Positions 5,033 to 37,198 of a stretch of DNA of 38,346 nt are shown here, in pieces (position 1 is the stretch's first letter; each line of letters opens with the position of its first letter). The translations under genes were made by a program, and so were the position numbers. This stretch comes from a virus. The notes under the pieces are model-generated. The model saw only the letters and a program-made list of their open reading frames with translations, did no database searches and was not told where the DNA came from. The stretch covers positions 1 to 38,346 of IMG/VR virus record IMGVR_UViG_3300045988_086125. The stretch is one strand, 5' to 3'.

Positions 5033-7323
5033 TAGTTAGCTCCCTTCAACTTATCAACTTCAGCTTTCAATTTGTTAAAGTCCGCTTGCGATACATAGCC
5101 CGCCGGTATCTTATTGTTAATGATCGATTGCAATTGTTTCATATCAAACTTAAGCTGCGTTACATCTTCGCTGCTTGCTCCGTTCTGAATAATCGTAGTT
5201 GTGCTTGACATGTTAGATTGACCGCTCGCTTGAACCTCAGCTACACGGCTAACGATAACCTTAACCCGCTCAAAGTCTTGCGCTTGACGGCTCGTTTCTA
5301 GTTGATAATCGGTCAGCCCTAACGACTTATCGCCGATAGTCAGCGTTGACTTGTGCGGTTGCAAGAGGTCAACTTCTTTTTGCACCACTCGCAGCAACTG
5401 TGATTGCGCTACATACGGGTTGATGAACATATACCGATCAGCAACTTTAAAATGGTCAAAGTTAGGCAAATGCAACTCAACGGCGCTGACTTCCCAGCTC
5501 TCTGGCACTCGTTGTGCGTCAATCCATGCTTTCGCTTGGTTCATCAAGTCGTTAGCATCGGTCACTTCGTTGAACTCAATCGTACCGTTGATAATGCCAA
5601 ACTCTTTTTGCAAATCTGGTATATCGATATAGTCTCGCCCTTGATTGACACTAGTAATCGTTAGTTTTGGCCTAGCAGCATTTGAGTTGCTGACCTCTTC
5701 TTTCTTACTTTCGTCTTCGGATTGCGAACCATCACCACCATTTTTGATTAACGCTTGCGGGTCTAACCAAGTGTCATCGTTCGTGAACGACTTCTTGACG
5801 GCTTCATAAAAATCGGCCTTAGTTACGCCAACGTGCAAGTGATCAGTGTTTCGCCAACCGATAACATCACCGGTTTTGACCTTATCACCAATGTTGACGC
5901 GAATCTGATCGGCACTGCTGAACGCCTCTTGATATACGATATTAAAACCGTCCGTACTATGCGTTACAACATAATTGCCAAGCCCGCCCATGTAGCCTTT
6001 GAAAACTACCGTGCCACCGTGAATAGCATGCACTTCACTACCCGGGTGATCTACGGAACCAAAATCTAATCCATCATGAAATGAATTAGGTCTAAAGCCA
6101 CCATCATAGCCGAATTTTTGGGCTTGGCTAAAACTACCTTCGCCAACGCTAGGAAACGGCCAGCCCCAACCATTTGTTGTCGTCGTTGTCGTGGTATCAC
6201 TAACTGGCCCGTTAACTCGACGGGTACCAGTTGGGCTCCAACCACCTGCAACCGAAATATCGGCAAGCCAATTGGAATCGTTGAACAGCGCTAAAAGCTG
6301 GTGAAAGCCCTTATGAATATCTTCATAGCCCTGTACTTTCCACTTGTCGAACGTTTGTTGGATATACTGTAACAGCCCCGTTGACGGGTGGCCCGCCTGA
6401 GCGTTGCTGTCCCAGTTGTTCGTGACGGTTTCGCTACCCCCAGATTCCTGATTGATACGCCTTAGAACAGCGTTCAACCCGTTCTGGTCAAGGTTGACGT
6501 TCATCATCTTCGCAGCATGCTTAATGGCTTCTGTCCAATCGCCATTAATAGCAGTCGTTGCCCCACCGCCAGTCGTTGTTGTTGAGTTTTCGCCGTCAAC
6601 CTCGACTTTTTGGGGTTCTAACTGTTTACCCAATGGGACGAGCCTAGTTATAACCTTTGTGGGGTCAATCGTAAGGCTCGCTGACTTCATGTTAACTGCT
6701 AACTGGATAGGCGTATCGTTCTTGTGATCGTTGCCAATGTCGGTTACATAGTCAAGCATGTTTGGGCCGTCCGGTTTGTACTCTGTTACCAGATAACCGC
6801 CCAGCTCGTTAATCAGCTTGTCTTTGATTGCGTCCCGTGTTTTTGGATAATCAATTTGCCGATAAGCGTCATCTTTATTGTTGGTAACGTTGCAGTTACG
6901 CAGTTTGAACTGCTTATACTGTGGCACTTGGCTATTGTGGACATCAATCAATGATTGAAGAAATTCTTTCGGTGTTAGCCCAACCGCTTCATAGAAACGC
7001 TGACTGCTATCTAGCAGATACGCTTCAATATCTTCGAACGTGTACGTTCTGATGAAGCGCCCGCTTGATTGCATTTCTTTCTTTGGCTTGATTGCTCGGC
7101 CACGAAACAATAGTTTATCGTCATCATAGACTTCAACGTGCGTGTGCATTGGCCTAACGTTGTCAAACAGCAAGTTATCACGGTTTACGGTTAACTCTAG
7201 ATCATCAATATCAGTTTCTTTGATCGTTAACTTGCCTTCGCTGACCGTTCGATTTACTCGCTGATCAAGCACGATAAAGCCGTTCTTATCAGTTGGTTCG
7301 TTATACCCGATAATGCGATACAT
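5032..7323 (-). CDS. tail-associated lysin (Tal) with inserted lytic transglycosylase-like and M23 peptidase domains
   Basis: 763 aa. The N-terminus is prophage-tail-endopeptidase-like. LRRINQESGGSETVTNNWDSNAQAGHPSTGLLQYIQ is SLT-like. HDGLDFG...HAIHGGTV...GDVIGWRNTDHLHVGV is M23-like. Poly-Thr linkers flank the insert. Confidence 0.85.
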   Translation of the reverse strand: MYRIIGYNEPTDKNGFIVLDQRVNRTVSEGKLTIKETDIDDLELTVNRDNLLFDNVRPMHTHVEVYDDDKLLFRGRAIKPKKEMQSSGRFIRTYTFEDIEAYLLDSSQRFYEAVGLTPKEFLQSLIDVHNSQVPQYKQFKLRNCNVTNNKDDAYRQIDYPKTRDAIKDKLINELGGYLVTEYKPDGPNMLDYVTDIGNDHKNDTPIQLAVNMKSASLTIDPTKVITRLVPLGKQLEPQKVEVDGENSTTTTGGGATTAINGDWTEAIKHAAKMMNVNLDQNGLNAVLRRINQESGGSETVTNNWDSNAQAGHPSTGLLQYIQQTFDKWKVQGYEDIHKGFHQLLALFNDSNWLADISVAGGWSPTGTRRVNGPVSDTTTTTTTNGWGWPFPSVGEGSFSQAQKFGYDGGFRPNSFHDGLDFGSVDHPGSEVHAIHGGTVVFKGYMGGLGNYVVTHSTDGFNIVYQEAFSSADQIRVNIGDKVKTGDVIGWRNTDHLHVGVTKADFYEAVKKSFTNDDTWLDPQALIKNGGDGSQSEDESKKEEVSNSNAARPKLTITSVNQGRDYIDIPDLQKEFGIINGTIEFNEVTDANDLMNQAKAWIDAQRVPESWEVSAVELHLPNFDHFKVADRYMFINPYVAQSQLLRVVQKEVDLLQPHKSTLTIGDKSLGLTDYQLETSRQAQDFERVKVIVSRVAEVQASGQSNMSSTTTIIQNGASSEDVTQLKFDMKQLQSIINNKIPAGYVSQADFNKLKAEVDKLKGAN

Positions 7324-10853: not shown

Positions 10854-11306
10854 CTAACCGCCACCTTTCCATGCTTTCATATCAATCAGACCGCGCTTTT
10901 TAAGCTCTTGAAATTCCTTGTAGCGCCTTTGGAACAGTTTCGTGGTGTTTTCCTTGTCATTGTCGTTAGAACGTCCATACTGGGCGTTAATCGCCGATAA
11001 TGACTTGGTTATACCGACATCTTTAAGGAACTTTTGAACAGACCCATACTTCCACTTTGGATTTTTACCACCAGTAGTTGCCTGAACGGCATAGTTGTAC
11101 CACGCTTGGTATGCCTGGTCTTCACGCTTGCGAATCGCTCGCAGTTCGTATGCTTCAAGCCGTAGTTGATACTCAGCTAACGTGATACGCTCTGCCTGTT
11201 TTACATCGTTAAAGCCTAGATATGCCAGGCAGTTGACCAAGATCATGCGATATGTTTCTTCACTTGTCTGGTCGTCCTCTTGACTATCTAGGCTTTCAGA
11301 TTTTTT
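10854..11306 (-). CDS. tail assembly chaperone, -1 frame extension (gpT-like part of a G-T fusion)
   Basis: This frame is -1 relative to 11288..11635. It is open from the slippery site (KKSESLDSQEDDQTSEETYRMILVN...) to the stop at 10854. Confidence 0.6.
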   Translation of the reverse strand, partial: KKSESLDSQEDDQTSEETYRMILVNCLAYLGFNDVKQAERITLAEYQLRLEAYELRAIRKREDQAYQAWYNYAVQATTGGKNPKWKYGSVQKFLKDVGITKSLSAINAQYGRSNDNDKENTTKLFQRRYKEFQELKKRGLIDMKAWKGGG

Positions 11307-20470: not shown

Positions 20471-20577
20471 CATTGAAACTGATGCGTAAGCAGCACGCCA
20501 ACGACCACTGTCAACGTACACGCTAAAACTACTTATTAAATCAACGAAAAATAGTTTTATTTTTTGCCCGTAGGCAA

Positions 20578-20665
20578 CGGAAAATGAAGGATTCGAACCT
20601 CCGAACGCTTTTTTCGCGTTACCGGTTTAGCGAACCGGTGCAATCAGCCACTCTGCCAATTTTCC
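20578..20665 (-). tRNA. class II tRNA, Ser(GCU)-like, with C at position 33
   Basis: Folded by hand. Acceptor stem GGAAAAT/ATTTTCC with discriminator G. D arm GCAG..TTGC with A14 and GG. Anticodon stem CCGGT/ACCGG with loop TCGCTAA. Long variable arm AACGC-GAAAAAA-GCGTT. T arm GGAGG-TTCGAAT-CCTTC. No CCA is encoded. Confidence 0.8.
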
Positions 20666-20741
20666 AAAACCCGCCGGCGTTGATAAGGAACACCATGCCG
20701 GAAGGATTATATGCAAAGGATTATGCAACCCGTTTAATTTG

Positions 20742-34256: not shown

Positions 34257-35120
34257 ATGAGAAAAAGTATTGCTTTCTTGATAATGGCATGTGGGATTGC
34301 CTTAGCCGGTTGCAGCACTAATACAAACAAAGCGAAATCTTCAAGTTCTTCCAGTTCATCAAACGTTTCAAGATCATCATCGGTTAAGCCTGACCCTAAC
34401 GCTTCTGAGCGGACTTGGACTTATAAGAACAATGTTTTTGACGCTGGCAATGAAACTTATCGCTTTACCAAGTGGGACGTTATGGATTCGGTAGATGAAG
34501 GCAAAAAGATTCTTGTCCTTTACTGTGATGTTACTAACAACTCGACAAAGGAAATGGACCCGTCAAACGTATATATGGTAGTTGGTGCCTATCAGAAAAA
34601 CGAAACTTCTGACGTGCAGCTCACACCGGGAATGGCAGCATTAGATGAAAATGGGAACAATCCATTACAGCAATATGAAGACGGGTTATACAATAAGCTG
34701 CTTCCTGGAAAGACCGTTAAAGCGGTTATGACGTTCACTATCAACAACGATAAACCGGTTCGTTTGGAATTTGAAAATCCTAACTTTGAAACAATTGGAA
34801 CCAAGACTTACAAAGTTAGCAAGAAATTAAGCAAAGCTGAAAGAAAGAAACTTAATCAGTCTAACTCTTCTTCATCTTCTACAACGCAAACAAACGCAGT
34901 TTCGCAAACTAAAACCGTTACTCAAAATAATGGCGGTAGCAGCACTACCCAGACTTCAAGCTCAAGCAGCAGCAATCAAACTTACACCGCTCAACCATCG
35001 CAAGGCGGTACGATTTATCAGACTGGCAACGACACTGGCAGTTTTGCAGGCGACCCAGATGTTATTGCTGACACGCAGCAAATACAAGAAAGTCTTGCCA
35101 AAGCTAATGGTTGGGAATAG
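34257..35120 (+). CDS. prophage lipoprotein (DUF5067/DUF4352-like core), candidate superinfection-exclusion factor
   Basis: The signal peptide plus lipobox is MRKSIAFLIMACGIALAGC. Ser-rich linkers flank the core. The gene lies in the lysogeny module between the repressor and the integrase. Confidence 0.7.
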   Translation: MRKSIAFLIMACGIALAGCSTNTNKAKSSSSSSSSNVSRSSSVKPDPNASERTWTYKNNVFDAGNETYRFTKWDVMDSVDEGKKILVLYCDVTNNSTKEMDPSNVYMVVGAYQKNETSDVQLTPGMAALDENGNNPLQQYEDGLYNKLLPGKTVKAVMTFTINNDKPVRLEFENPNFETIGTKTYKVSKKLSKAERKKLNQSNSSSSSTTQTNAVSQTKTVTQNNGGSSTTQTSSSSSSNQTYTAQPSQGGTIYQTGNDTGSFAGDPDVIADTQQIQESLAKANGWE

Positions 35121-35204: not shown

Positions 35205-36299
35205 ATGGCTTCTTTTACAAAACGTAACGGCAAATGGCAAGCTCGTATAAGTTGGCACGATGAAAATGGGAAGCTGCACCAGAAAGCAAAGTCTGGGTTT
35301 GCTACCAAAGCACAAGCGAAAGACTATGCAACCAGGATGGAAAACGAGCTGATCAACGGCGTTGACATCGCAGCAGACCCAGTTTTTGCCGACTACTTTA
35401 AAATGTGGTGTGAAACTTATCGCTTGCCGAAAATATCAAAAGCAACGGCTCGCAACTATATGAGTTATTACCGAGTTATCACAAGTTATTTTGGTGAAAC
35501 TAGAATCAAGCAGATCAAGCGCAACACCTATCAGCAGTTTTTAAACGACTATGGCAAAGATCACTCGTTGGGAACAATGAAAGAAATGACGTCAAAAGTT
35601 AAAGCTTGCGTTAAATCAGCTATTGCAGACGGTATCATCACTAAAGACTTTACCTATAATGCAAATATAACCTATGACAAATCGCTGACACGCAACCCTG
35701 AGTATTTATCCATCAATGAGCTTAAACGGCTTATATCAGCCCTTAATGACGATTTAAAACCAGATAACGTTAAGCCTTATATCGTTTTGACTGCTATTTA
35801 TACCGGCGCAAGATTTTCAGAAATTATCGCTTTAACTTGGAAAGACGTTGACTACCTGCACCGAACGATCACGATTAATAAATCCATTGACTATAAGTAC
35901 AATACCGGATTTAAACCAACCAAAAATGAAAGTTCAAACAGGACAATTCGAGTTAATAATGAGTTGCTTAAGATATTGTCGCAGCTAAAAGTTAATCAAA
36001 CGCCACTTTTGTTTGCTAAAACTCCGCAATCTTTTCGCACTATTTTCATAAAAAAAGTTAACGCCTATCTTAAATCGACTATGGAACGAATCGGAATTAA
36101 AAAACGCGATTATACGTTTCATGCACTACGCCACAGCCATGTTGCGTTTCTTTTAAGTCAAGGAATCGACATTTACGCAATTAGCAAACGATTAGGGCAC
36201 TCAAACATGACAACAACTAGTAATGTATATGCCTATCTAATAGATGAATATAAGCACAAACTGGACGATGAAATTGAGCGCAAATTAGCGCAATTATAG
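35205..36299 (+). CDS. int: tyrosine site-specific integrase
   Basis: 364 aa. Motifs are TGARFSEI (Arg I), HALRHSH (H-x-x-R) and LGHSNMTTTSNVYAYL (catalytic Tyr), with an N-terminal SAM-like arm-binding region. Confidence 0.95.
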   Translation: MASFTKRNGKWQARISWHDENGKLHQKAKSGFATKAQAKDYATRMENELINGVDIAADPVFADYFKMWCETYRLPKISKATARNYMSYYRVITSYFGETRIKQIKRNTYQQFLNDYGKDHSLGTMKEMTSKVKACVKSAIADGIITKDFTYNANITYDKSLTRNPEYLSINELKRLISALNDDLKPDNVKPYIVLTAIYTGARFSEIIALTWKDVDYLHRTITINKSIDYKYNTGFKPTKNESSNRTIRVNNELLKILSQLKVNQTPLLFAKTPQSFRTIFIKKVNAYLKSTMERIGIKKRDYTFHALRHSHVAFLLSQGIDIYAISKRLGHSNMTTTSNVYAYLIDEYKHKLDDEIERKLAQL

Positions 36300-36305
36300 C
36301 CATCG

Positions 36306-36322
36306 TTGCACTAATATTGCAC
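36306..36322 (+). repeat. tandem TTGCAC motifs (candidate integrase arm-type sites, P arm)
   Basis: TTGCAC occurs at 36306..36311 and 36317..36322, an 11-bp spacing, directly after the int stop. Confidence 0.4.
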
Positions 36323-36476
36323 TGTTAAACTATAAATGCTGTTATATCAACGTTTTAACGATGTTAAATACCTTATCGATAAAGGTCAGCATAGTGTTCT
36401 ATAGTTTTTTATAATGCACGAAACCGTATATTATCATAATTTAGTGATATATAACAATATATAAATATTATAACCA

Positions 36477-36494
36477 TTGCACTTTTCGTTGCAC
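36477..36494 (+). repeat. tandem TTGCAC motifs (candidate integrase arm-type sites, P' arm)
   Basis: TTGCAC occurs at 36477..36482 and 36489..36494, a 12-bp spacing. The two pairs bracket an AT-rich segment of about 155 bp (probable attP core region). Confidence 0.4.
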
Positions 36495-36520
36495 AAAAAA
36501 ACGGCCGTCATTGACGACCG
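36495..36520 (-). terminator. rho-independent terminator ending the moron/mini-array transcript
   Basis: Minus strand reads CGGTCGT-CAATG-ACGGCCG (one internal mismatch) followed by TTTTTTT. It overlaps the last 3 nt of the terminal CRISPR-like repeat. Confidence 0.6.
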
Positions 36521-36606
36521 CAGCCCCACTTGCGGTGGGGATAACAAATTAAAACCCAAACATCTAATATCTATATTTGGATCACACCCACATACGTGGG
36601 GATAAC
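36518..36606 (-). CRISPR. mini-CRISPR array, type I-E-like: 28-nt repeat, 33-nt spacer, degenerate 28-nt terminal repeat
   Basis: Minus strand reads GTTATCCCCACGTATGTGGGTGTGATCC | AAATATAGATATTAGATGTTTGGGTTTTAATTT | GTTATCCCCACCGCAAGTGGGGCTGCGG. The first 11 nt are identical and both repeats carry a CCCCAC/GTGGG(G) hairpin. The period is 61 nt. Confidence 0.6.
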
Positions 36607-36612
36607 TATTTA

Positions 36613-36641
36613 AGTATATATCAGTGTAATGAAAAAGTAAC
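36613..36641 (-). promoter_or_regulatory. putative promoter immediately upstream of the mini-array
   Basis: Minus strand reads ...GTTACTttttcattacacTGaTATATACTtaaata|GTTATCC. There is an extended -10 (TG-n-TATATA / TATACT) and a weak -35. The predicted start is within a few nt of repeat 1. Confidence 0.35.
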
Positions 36642-36667
36642 CCCCGAATAGGAGCTGCTTTTTCATT

Positions 36668-37198
36668 TTATCCATGTTGTGAAACTATCTTTTGATAAGT
36701 TTCAAACTCTTTGACGAAAGCCAAGTCGTCAAAAGTCATGCTTTCAACACGCTCAGCGTCAAAGTTGGCATATGACACTTTCGGGTTATACTCGCCAACA
36801 ATGCTTGCGGCTTCAGCAGCATAGGCCAGTTTGCCAACCAGCTGGCCTTTTGGGTTGACGATTGCGACCACTTCGCCACGATATTTAACTATGATACGGT
36901 CAAACTGGTAAAACATTTGCCATTTGTTGACAACGTTCTTTTCATCGCCACCGCCTATAACCGAAAAATATTGATTAACCAGATCAATGACCGTTTCATC
37001 GTTGATAGCTTTGTACAGCTCTTTGCCGTACATATCAGCCAACTTGTGGACTACCTCCCACTTGGCTGATTTCATTTTGTCGGGGTTAGCCCGGTAAGCT
37101 TTCAGTGTTGGGATTGACGCCCCAGACGCTTCTTGCATAGTTTCAAAGCTATACTTCTTTTCGGCGATTACCGCCTTTGCCTTTTCAAAATCGTTCAT
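36668..37198 (-). CDS. hypothetical moron protein with N-terminal HTH-like region
   Basis: 176 aa. SFETMQEASGASIPTLKAYRANPDK resembles an HTH. It is the second gene of the post-lysin operon, and its stop is 61 nt upstream of the mini-array. Confidence 0.6.
   Translation of the reverse strand: MNDFEKAKAVIAEKKYSFETMQEASGASIPTLKAYRANPDKMKSAKWEVVHKLADMYGKELYKAINDETVIDLVNQYFSVIGGGDEKNVVNKWQMFYQFDRIIVKYRGEVVAIVNPKGQLVGKLAYAAEAASIVGEYNPKVSYANFDAERVESMTFDDLAFVKEFETYQKIVSQHG

Follow-up and report, generated by a model that had tools for sequence, protein, structure and literature searches.

The 38-kb window analysed here is the whole sequence of a temperate phage of Limosilactobacillus mucosae (IMG/VR record IMGVR_UViG_3300045988_086125, 38,346 nucleotides). 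On its minus strand, next to the phage attachment site (attP), it carries a type I-E CRISPR mini-array in which two repeats enclose one spacer-like guide of 33 nucleotides (nt). We give about an even chance to the reading that this array is a Cracr- and CreR-like anti-CRISPR guide, encoding a viral CRISPR RNA-like RNA (crlRNA) that would hijack the host Cascade complex, silence immunity and compete for Cas proteins. This reading draws on the anatomy and type I-E origin of the array, on the conservation of the cassette and of the 5' end of its guide among mobile elements, on the CreR-type circuits present in I-E loci, and on one site at such a locus that matches the guide of a sister phage.

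Anatomy and type I-E origin of the array

An earlier, sequence-only reading of the window had described a repeat-spacer-repeat array whose repeats share their first 11 nt and recur with a period of 28 + 33 = 61 nt. The coordinates, strand, common start and period all hold: repeats 1 and 2 (R1 and R2) are identical over their first 11 nt (GTTATCCCCAC), and a direct-repeat finder recovers the pair at 61 nt. The array and its flanks consist of the following parts.

36606-36579, minus strand: repeat 1 (R1), GTTATCCCCACGTATGTGGGTGTGATCC; a CCCAC/GTGGG hairpin with a GTAT loop, then an intact GTGATCC 5' handle
36578-36546, minus strand: spacer-like guide of 33 nt (the 'type A' allele), AAATATAGATATTAGATGTTTGGGTTTTAATTT, with the conserved 5' end AAATATAGATATTAG
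36545-36518, minus strand: terminal repeat (R2), GTTATCCCCACCGCAAGTGGGGCTGCGG
36521-36495, minus strand: intrinsic terminator, GCGGTCGTC-AAT-GACGGCCG and then T7; a 9-bp G+C-rich hairpin (terminator scan and fold)
36607-36638, minus strand: leader or promoter-like segment, with TATACT at 36618-36613 and then TAAATA directly before R1; the leader ends ...CACTGATATATACTTAAATA
36639-36656, minus strand: terminator-like hairpin closing the upstream open reading frame (ORF) ORF176, conserved 5' of the cassette in sister phages

The first 22 nt of R2 (GTTATCCCCACCGCAAGTGGGG) form a Cas6e-type hairpin; in place of the handle stands CTGCGG, which forms the terminator's 5' arm. After R2 the minus strand reads TCGTCAATGACGGCCG and then T7 to 36495, bearing out the proposal that a hairpin and T7 terminator overlap the end of the repeat; this terminator is kept across the family of related cassettes described below, with compensated stem variants. 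Folding of the predicted 113-nt transcript gives one hairpin each for R1 and R2 plus the terminator (z = -3.8), the R1 stem being weakened to 5 bp by a T at position 21. The guide 33-mer is present once in the window.

The 5' side of the array is less clear-cut. An extended -10 element had been proposed upstream of R1. A -10-like TATACT does lie 6 nt 5' of R1 and is conserved across the cassette family, but the leader TG is off the canonical extended -10 position, no good -35 accompanies it, and a promoter scan of the window called no site before R1. Promoter function and transcription of the array are only inferred. The terminator-like hairpin behind ORF176 appears to isolate the array as its own transcription unit.

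The repeats have the features of a repeat class that a collection-wide pattern scan found in dozens of chromosomal Lactobacillaceae type I-E arrays (TCCCCAC-N4-GTGGG-NN-TGATCC, 61-nt period). R1 has the class form GTATT-CCCCAC-N4-GTGGGG-GTGATCC, and the array has the class period, a 28-nt repeat plus a spacer of ~33 nt; relatives with three repeats show 61-63 nt. The nearest genuine I-E repeat, GTATTCCCCACGTATGTGGGGGTGATCC, occurs, among the matches listed, in Lentilactobacillus rapi, L. otakiensis and L. dabitei; R1 is identical to it at 25/28 positions, with three differences and an exact handle. Searched with at most 3 mismatches, GTATTCCCCACGTATGTGGGGGTGATCC gave 1 match in the window versus 0 in 100 shuffles. 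Sister-phage copies of R1 are closer (27/28 in L027, the exact 28-mer in L167). Since no match is expected by chance and a sister phage carries all 28 positions, R1 is of CRISPR origin. A search of Rfam gave no match to a CRISPR direct-repeat family even at E = 10, which is uninformative. Judged from its sequence, the element is certainly a type I-E mini-array carried on a mobile element.

Consistent with this assignment, the handle GTGATCC is invariant in 15/15 family repeats, and the repeat hairpins are kept, with 90% of cells paired versus 38-63% with slid partners. Stem covariation is thin: there is an A-U to G-C swap in two related elements (L162 and L226), and two pairs change on both sides, a count equalled by 52/500 shuffles. 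Chromosomal arrays likewise end in repeats that keep the hairpin and have lost the handle, as R2 does; their leaders end ...TTTAGT, where the cassette has ATATACTTAAAT instead. The earlier description of a preserved R1 handle and Cas6e hairpin beside an R2 degenerate at its 3' end is thereby reinforced. The pattern of an invariant handle, kept hairpins and a hairpin-only terminal repeat fits apparent selection for production of one CRISPR RNA (crRNA).

The window has no cas gene of its own, as had been stated: tblastn of all eight I-E Cas proteins against the 38-kb window returned no homologue (best E = 0.23), and no Cas Pfam family occurs among the called prophage genes, so that an adjacent cas operon is absent.

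We weighed whether the element is CRISPR-derived at all, given that it lies 110-230 nt from the attP core of a phage whose integrase has an arm-binding domain. On that view the 11-mers would be arm-type integrase sites, or the hairpins chance repeat-like terminators. The near-identity of R1 to a real I-E repeat speaks against both. Separate GTGCAA[CT] repeat pairs flank the core symmetrically and explain the arms, so the CRISPR-like repeats are not needed to account for attP, and the cassette also sits on a MobL element that has no integrase gene in the 8 kb around it. We therefore rejected arm-type sites as the explanation of the 11-mers, and a non-CRISPR origin of either kind is extremely improbable.

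A cassette family with a conserved guide

Exact-pattern scans of IMG/VR, genomes and metagenomes showed that at least a dozen other phage contigs carry this cassette, preceded by a variety of upstream genes. With MobL-element contigs counted in, about 20 contigs besides the window have it, in versions of one, two or three units. It comprises the upstream terminator, a ATATACTTAAAT block, R1, one or two guides, a hairpin-only terminal repeat and the fused terminator. One phage (L003) equals the window phage minus exactly one 61-nt unit, which leaves a solitary repeat; another (L037) has window-like flanks and one unit more; and in L163 the terminal repeat has no R1 upstream. L024, L027, L037 and L178 carry two different alleles each; the window has a single one. 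A version of the cassette with canonical repeats is also found on an element encoding a MobL relaxase, in L. mucosae strain 6A and two metagenome contigs, and the ATATACTTAAAT block is common to phage and MobL-element copies. In these three contigs differing ordinary spacers stand at the leader-proximal end, ahead of a constant trailer guide.

This distribution argues against a functionless passenger, that is, a decaying array fragment picked up once, including by imprecise excision. Decay would be compatible with the weakened R1 stem and the absence of a strong promoter, and orphan CRISPRs are reported in 93/93 L. mucosae genomes (PMC7016874). However, the array is on attP's phage side, and integration occurs in an aldo/keto reductase gene, not at a CRISPR locus. 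Moreover, the cassette, complete with leader block and fused terminator, is found again after other upstream genes in different phages and on the MobL element, and the conserved parts are the parts a crRNA needs. We regard the passenger explanation as very unlikely.

The phages that carry the cassette are themselves targets of type I-E systems. A genuine array with GTAT-loop repeats (L166) holds a spacer 30/33 identical to the sister phage L022, next to TAA, an AA protospacer-adjacent motif (PAM). This match indicates that these phages are under type I-E pressure and that AA is the PAM of the systems concerned. The cassette probably interacts with real I-E machinery.

The earlier proposal presupposed a type I-E system on the host side, and this is substantiated for L. 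mucosae. Type I-E is reported in 12/93 strains of the species and 'CRISPR' in 93/93 genomes, orphan arrays being ignored in that survey (PMC7016874). The canonical repeat is present both on the MobL element of strain 6A and in the array that targets the sister phage. No Limosilactobacillus protein was among the best 120 matches in Cas6e, Cse1 and Cas3 searches, cluster look-ups gave only Lentilactobacillus names, and tblastn against plasmids found no Limosilactobacillus I-E system.

We aligned 17 handle-guide-hairpin units from 12 elements. All phage 'spacers' aligned as homologous alleles with the common 5' motif NRATATNRATAT. All 17 units read ATAT at guide positions 3-6 and AT at 9-10, and the alleles differ chiefly at positions 1, 2, 7 and 8, some starting CAATATTGATA.., YGATATYAATRT.. 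or AGATATAGATA... Types A and B have their first 15 nt in common (for example CAATATTGATATTAG) and diverge completely thereafter. RNAalifold on the 17 units kept the terminal hairpin as the sole consensus structure, and the conservation of the guide therefore lies in primary sequence. A hairpin inside the guide, in which CCAAAUAU pairs with AUGUUUGG in a single-sequence fold, was lost in this analysis and was rejected.

The sequence-only reading had expected related prophages to conserve the repeats and vary the spacer. Instead, the spacer is one of a small set of homologous alleles. Turnover of unrelated spacers by acquisition is not seen in the phage copies, and differing leader-proximal spacers occur only in the MobL-element copies. 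The guide thus appears to be passed on by descent, its sequence kept in diverged phages and in a plasmid-like element, and not to be hypervariable immune memory. The combination of a conserved PAM-proximal half, a free distal half and stacked alleles has been reported as the hallmark of regulatory crRNA-like RNAs and phage 'Cracr arrays'.

The same alignment bears on inter-element warfare, in which the spacer would direct host Cascade-Cas3 against a competing phage or plasmid and bring about superinfection exclusion. Such attack is the classical role of viral mini-arrays (PMC6858448, PMC11656645), and the family can evidently hold spacers of that kind: among the differing leader-proximal spacers of the MobL-element copies, one matches small rolling-circle Lactobacillaceae plasmids at 31/33 positions with a CAA PAM and appears to be a genuine anti-plasmid spacer, so a cassette can serve such a role. 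Yet searches with all alleles against the window, ~1.8 Mb of collected loci including related phage fragments, INPHARED (blastn) and PLSDB gave only chance-level matches, and a search of IMG/VR with the 16-mer cores of types A and B gave no protospacer. The spacer is, moreover, conserved across diverged phages and the plasmid-like element, not replaced. The suggestion that the array attacks competing phages or plasmids accordingly gained no support from these databases, and we judge warfare distinctly unlikely for the window's guide.

The sequence-only reading had offered an action against host CRISPR as its other branch, in the form of an RNA decoy, and the evidence lies nearer to this branch; the pattern of conservation points to a sequence-specific regulatory guide and not to a plain decoy. 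A decoy would resemble the RNA anti-CRISPRs (Racrs), its RNA mimicking a crRNA or repeat and sequestering Cas6e, Cas7 and Cas5, with a guide that has no target. Racrs, two of them I-E, are experimentally established (PMC10651486), solitary-repeat cassettes exist in this family (L003 and L163), and the repeat hairpins and handle are its best-conserved parts. By contrast, a decoy needs no conserved guide, whereas here positions 3-6 and 9-10 are invariant and alleles with unrelated 3' halves have the first 15 nt in common; the stacking of different alleles in one array would be purposeless; and the sister allele has a significant PAM-flanked match to a cas-locus site, described below. We consider a pure decoy unlikely.

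Two further observations concern the repeats of the family. In the MobL element (L159 at 6100-6330, L168 and L169), the leader-proximal repeat has a C-to-T change (GTATTCCTCAC) and the repeats behind newer spacers are canonical. This pattern is unlike simple duplication at the leader end and suggests ectopic integration or recombination with chromosomal arrays. In the L. mucosae phages L162 and L226 the first repeat, whose stem is CCCGC/GCGGG and whose loop is 5 nt long, resembles the I-E repeat class GTATTCCCCGCACATGCGGGGGTGATCC of L223-L225. Their terminal repeat stays CCCCA-type, which would give two repeat specificities in one mini-array.

CreR circuits and a candidate target at a cas locus

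We examined complete Lactobacillaceae I-E loci fetched through their Cas proteins. In four groups of loci a CreR-type mini-array lies upstream of cas3, and in each group the CreR guide (TAGTATATTCTT.. in L214, ACTAGTTGTTGT.. in L219, TCTAGTTGTC.. in L. parabuchneri/L. buchneri-like loci) agrees over 11-12 PAM-proximal nt with an AA-flanked site at the cas3 promoter. CreR-type regulation is thus present in host-type systems, here four groups of Lactobacillaceae I-E loci.

One of these loci contains a candidate target for the phage family. The allele of the sister phage L022 (type A, CAATATTGATATTAGATG) matches AAA|CAATATTGATAATAGATG in L219 at 17/18 PAM-proximal nt, and type B has the first 15 nt in common. 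The sole mismatch is at position 12, and pairing does not extend past nt 18. In E. coli Cascade, position 12 is flipped out and unpaired. The L219 site, ~630 nt upstream of cas3, overlaps the -10 in a promoter-like TGGATA-17-GATAAT and stands just ahead of a 78-codon ORF missed by the gene caller. Its PAM-proximal run is 18 nt long; the longest run was 15 in 300 dinucleotide shuffles of the scanned 5.5 kb and 14 over the ~1.8 Mb of collected sequence. In further cas3-upstream regions (L227-L236), seed scans at relaxed settings returned background matches only (10-12/14).

These data suggest how a Cracr- and CreR-like guide might work. A short transcript would run from at or just before R1 to the terminator fused to the terminal repeat. 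Host Cas6e would cleave at the base of the R1 hairpin and remain on the terminal hairpin, giving a ~62-nt crRNA (GUGAUCC handle, 33-nt guide and 22-nt 3' hairpin) that would load into host Cascade. The conserved PAM-proximal 15-18 nt could then pair with an AA-flanked promoter site in the host's own I-E cas locus. With the PAM-distal half unpaired, Cascade would bind as a repressor and Cas3 would not be licensed. [quoted passage not shown]

Several points weigh against this reading. Against the L219 site, the window allele (AAATATAGATATTAGATG) has mismatches at positions 1 and 7 of the seed in addition to 12, and given these mismatches it should not bind there; its predicted target is AA|AAATATAGATAnTAGATG in an L. 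mucosae I-E variant, and this is a prediction only. L219 is itself Lentilactobacillus-like and not L. mucosae, its Cas3 being 79% identical to that of L. parabuchneri. The site does not lie at the CreR-controlled promoter, and a single target site supports the regulatory model. The CreR guides of L214, L219, L227 and L231 are unrelated to types A and B, and published Cracrs were defined by CreR/CreA similarity. The guide is full length at 33 nt, where many regulatory guides are shorter. Finally, no strong promoter was detected before R1.

The L219 site and the MobL-element spacers also allow a dual-purpose array, which we see as possible but improbable. In such an array the last guide, fixed beside the hairpin-only repeat and the terminator, would be a regulatory crlRNA silencing an unrecognised promoter or small gene of Lactobacillaceae I-E loci, possibly a CreT-like safeguard other than the cas3 promoter under CreR control. 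The leader end would stay open to spacer acquisition by the host's Cas1-Cas2, as on the MobL element. If this were true, one orphan array would disarm host immunity and direct the remainder against rival plasmids.

Several observations on the I-E loci stand apart from the candidate target. In the L214 locus (46% G+C), CreR at 2605-2681 has a short 21-nt guide. The locus is without cas1, and a solitary repeat (GTGTTCCCCACGCATGTGGGGG) at 10862-10889 lies between cas6e and a cas2-DnaQ fusion, in the expected place of cas1. Small ORFs missed by the gene caller recur between the upstream array or flank and the CreR/cas3 promoter: the 78-codon ORF of L219 is at 280-516, and upstream of CreR in the L. 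parabuchneri loci L227 and L230 there is a strongly hydrophobic ORF of ~65 codons. The small ORFs of L219 and L227/L230 are either candidate CRISPR-associated small toxins or spurious.

We compared the cassette with the known RNA devices of phages and hosts. Cracr arrays and viral regulatory mini-arrays are reported in bioRxiv 10.1101/2024.10.29.618823 (Liu et al.) and 10.1101/2023.03.03.530964 (Shmakov et al. 2023). Several features agree: a spacer-like guide sits between repeat-like sequences on a mobile element without cas genes, two or three different alleles can be stacked per array, the devices are directed at type I-E in hosts that carry CreR-type autoregulation, and only the PAM-proximal part of the guide complements a host cas-locus promoter (here for the sister allele, at L219). 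Cracrs pair over at least 9 PAM-proximal bp at a cas or creT promoter, with incomplete distal pairing; L022 type A and type B at L219 give 17/18 with an AAA PAM, and the window allele is mismatched at 1, 7 and 12. Published Cracrs differ in having been found through guide similarity to host CreR/CreA, whereas the phage guides here are dissimilar to the examined CreR guides. They differ also in that the site here is a distal promoter-like element before a small uncalled ORF and the guide is a full-length 33 nt. The text of the Cracr papers names no example from Lactobacillaceae.

Like Racrs (PMC10651486, Camara-Wilpert et al. 2023), the cassette mimics the host repeat, is encoded by a phage and forms an apparent short transcription unit of its own, and L003 and L163 are one-unit variants. 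I-E Racrs were validated experimentally. Racrs need no guide and act through aberrant Cas subcomplexes (PMC10651486); the window differs in having two repeats and a conserved guide, and not a single repeat directly behind a promoter. With interviral mini-arrays (Medvedeva et al. 2019, PMC6858448; PMC11656645) it has in common one or two spacers, host-type repeats, the lack of cas genes, dependence on host effectors and, on the MobL-element sibling, what appears to be a genuine anti-plasmid spacer. The spacers of interviral mini-arrays match related viruses and vary between viruses; here the guide is conserved and has no detectable protospacer. Host CreR/CreA elements have the same psiR-psiS-psiR architecture with a degenerate second repeat, and the same logic of a partial match beside an AA PAM, seen directly in L214, L219 and L227-L234. 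They differ in being chromosomal, beside cas3, and in protecting or tuning the system, whereas the phage element is far from cas and would presumably counter the system.

Published work already covers mini-arrays of phages, solitary repeat RNAs and Cracr arrays, and none was found described in the present lineage. A target other than the CreR site is unexplained and may be novel. The few known phage RNA devices for anti-CRISPR action or CRISPR hijacking are joined here by a family from a Gram-positive gut and food lineage (Limosilactobacillus with its phages and mobilizable elements). With its 1-3 units and several alleles, this family offers a compact natural set for working out the rules of crRNA-like regulation in type I-E systems with 28-nt repeats. 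Such elements can account for the persistence of prophages in strains with matching spacers, and could disturb genome editing with endogenous type I-E systems in lactobacilli. The 'orphan CRISPRs' that are routinely discarded (93/93 L. mucosae genomes, PMC7016874) may include functional devices of mobile elements.

Phage setting and neighbouring elements

The window is a circularly permuted temperate siphophage (43.8% G+C). Its minus-strand genes run from early through structural to lysis, wrapping round the window ends; next in order come a Gp111-like gene, ORF176, the array, attP and the convergent integrase. The features around the array are these.

36668-37198, minus strand: ORF176, directly upstream of the array, in moron position after the lysin and the Gp111-like gene
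35205-36299, plus strand: tyrosine integrase (Pfam Phage_integrase and Arm-DNA-bind_4), convergent with the array
36376-36386, no strand: attP core TCGATAAAGGT, both phage/host junctions having been mapped in integrated copies
36476-36497, no strand: GTGCAA[CT] direct-repeat pair, candidate arm-type integrase sites (repeat finder), with a partner pair at 36303-36326

ORF176 was checked as a possible anti-CRISPR (Acr) or Acr-associated (Aca) protein and has no Pfam, PHROG, NCBIfam or PDB match. The identical ORF176 protein occurs on 23 contigs examined, and identical ORF176 and integrase proteins occur on dozens of gut-metagenome and Logan contigs, circular phage and integrated prophage alike. 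The prophage inserts in the gene for a 317-aa aldo/keto reductase of L. mucosae, which is also seen intact at 317 aa; integration splits it into ORFs of 250 and 83 aa. The array comes to lie at the extreme phage-side end of the prophage, reading outward and stopping ~110 nt before the attP core. The flanking host proteins match L. mucosae proteins exactly, which identifies the host.

INPHARED holds no close relative of the phage, the sole match being 370 nt at 77% to the L. fermentum phage phiPYB5. A related phage (L226) is present in NZ_CP058957.1 and aligns at 89% identity to 45% of the window's first 25 kb. This record was deposited as 'plasmid unnamed3' of L. mucosae strain A1 (39,346 bp) and contains the cassette, unannotated. 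By its gene content (holin, GH25 lysin, integrase, terminase and capsid genes) NZ_CP058957.1 is a circular phage genome; the RGI track of PLSDB calls one of its hypothetical proteins (124 aa) tet(C), which looks like a false resistance call.

The window also encodes a phage tRNA-Ser with anticodon GCT (20577-20666, minus strand) and, in the lysogeny module, a DUF5067 lipoprotein with long Ser-rich linkers (34257-35120, plus strand). In the Logan contig SRR11412749 (L009), from ~36379 in window terms, the sequence past the array joins a Peptidase_M78-like gene beside a cI-like repressor. This variant is without the integrase and DUF5067 lipoprotein genes and may be an integration-deficient deletion derivative.

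Mini-arrays of other kinds were found in the same collection. A second set of phage mini-arrays, family B (IMG/VR contigs L025, L032, L036 and L038, 45-47% G+C), has a consensus sigma-70 promoter, TTGACG-17-TAATAT, 12 nt before TTCCCCAC-N4-GTGGGGGTGATCC. Its guide of ~35 nt (GGAGGACACTGT...) is conserved, and its terminal repeat, again hairpin-only, is joined to another terminator. Solitary repeats or one-spacer mini-arrays with non-canonical 5' ends (AATTT.., TAATT..) occur in L082 and L138 (Lactobacillus delbrueckii) and in L092 and L153 (Lactiplantibacillus). These end in terminators or degenerate repeats, and elements of this kind appear to be widespread in Lactobacillaceae.

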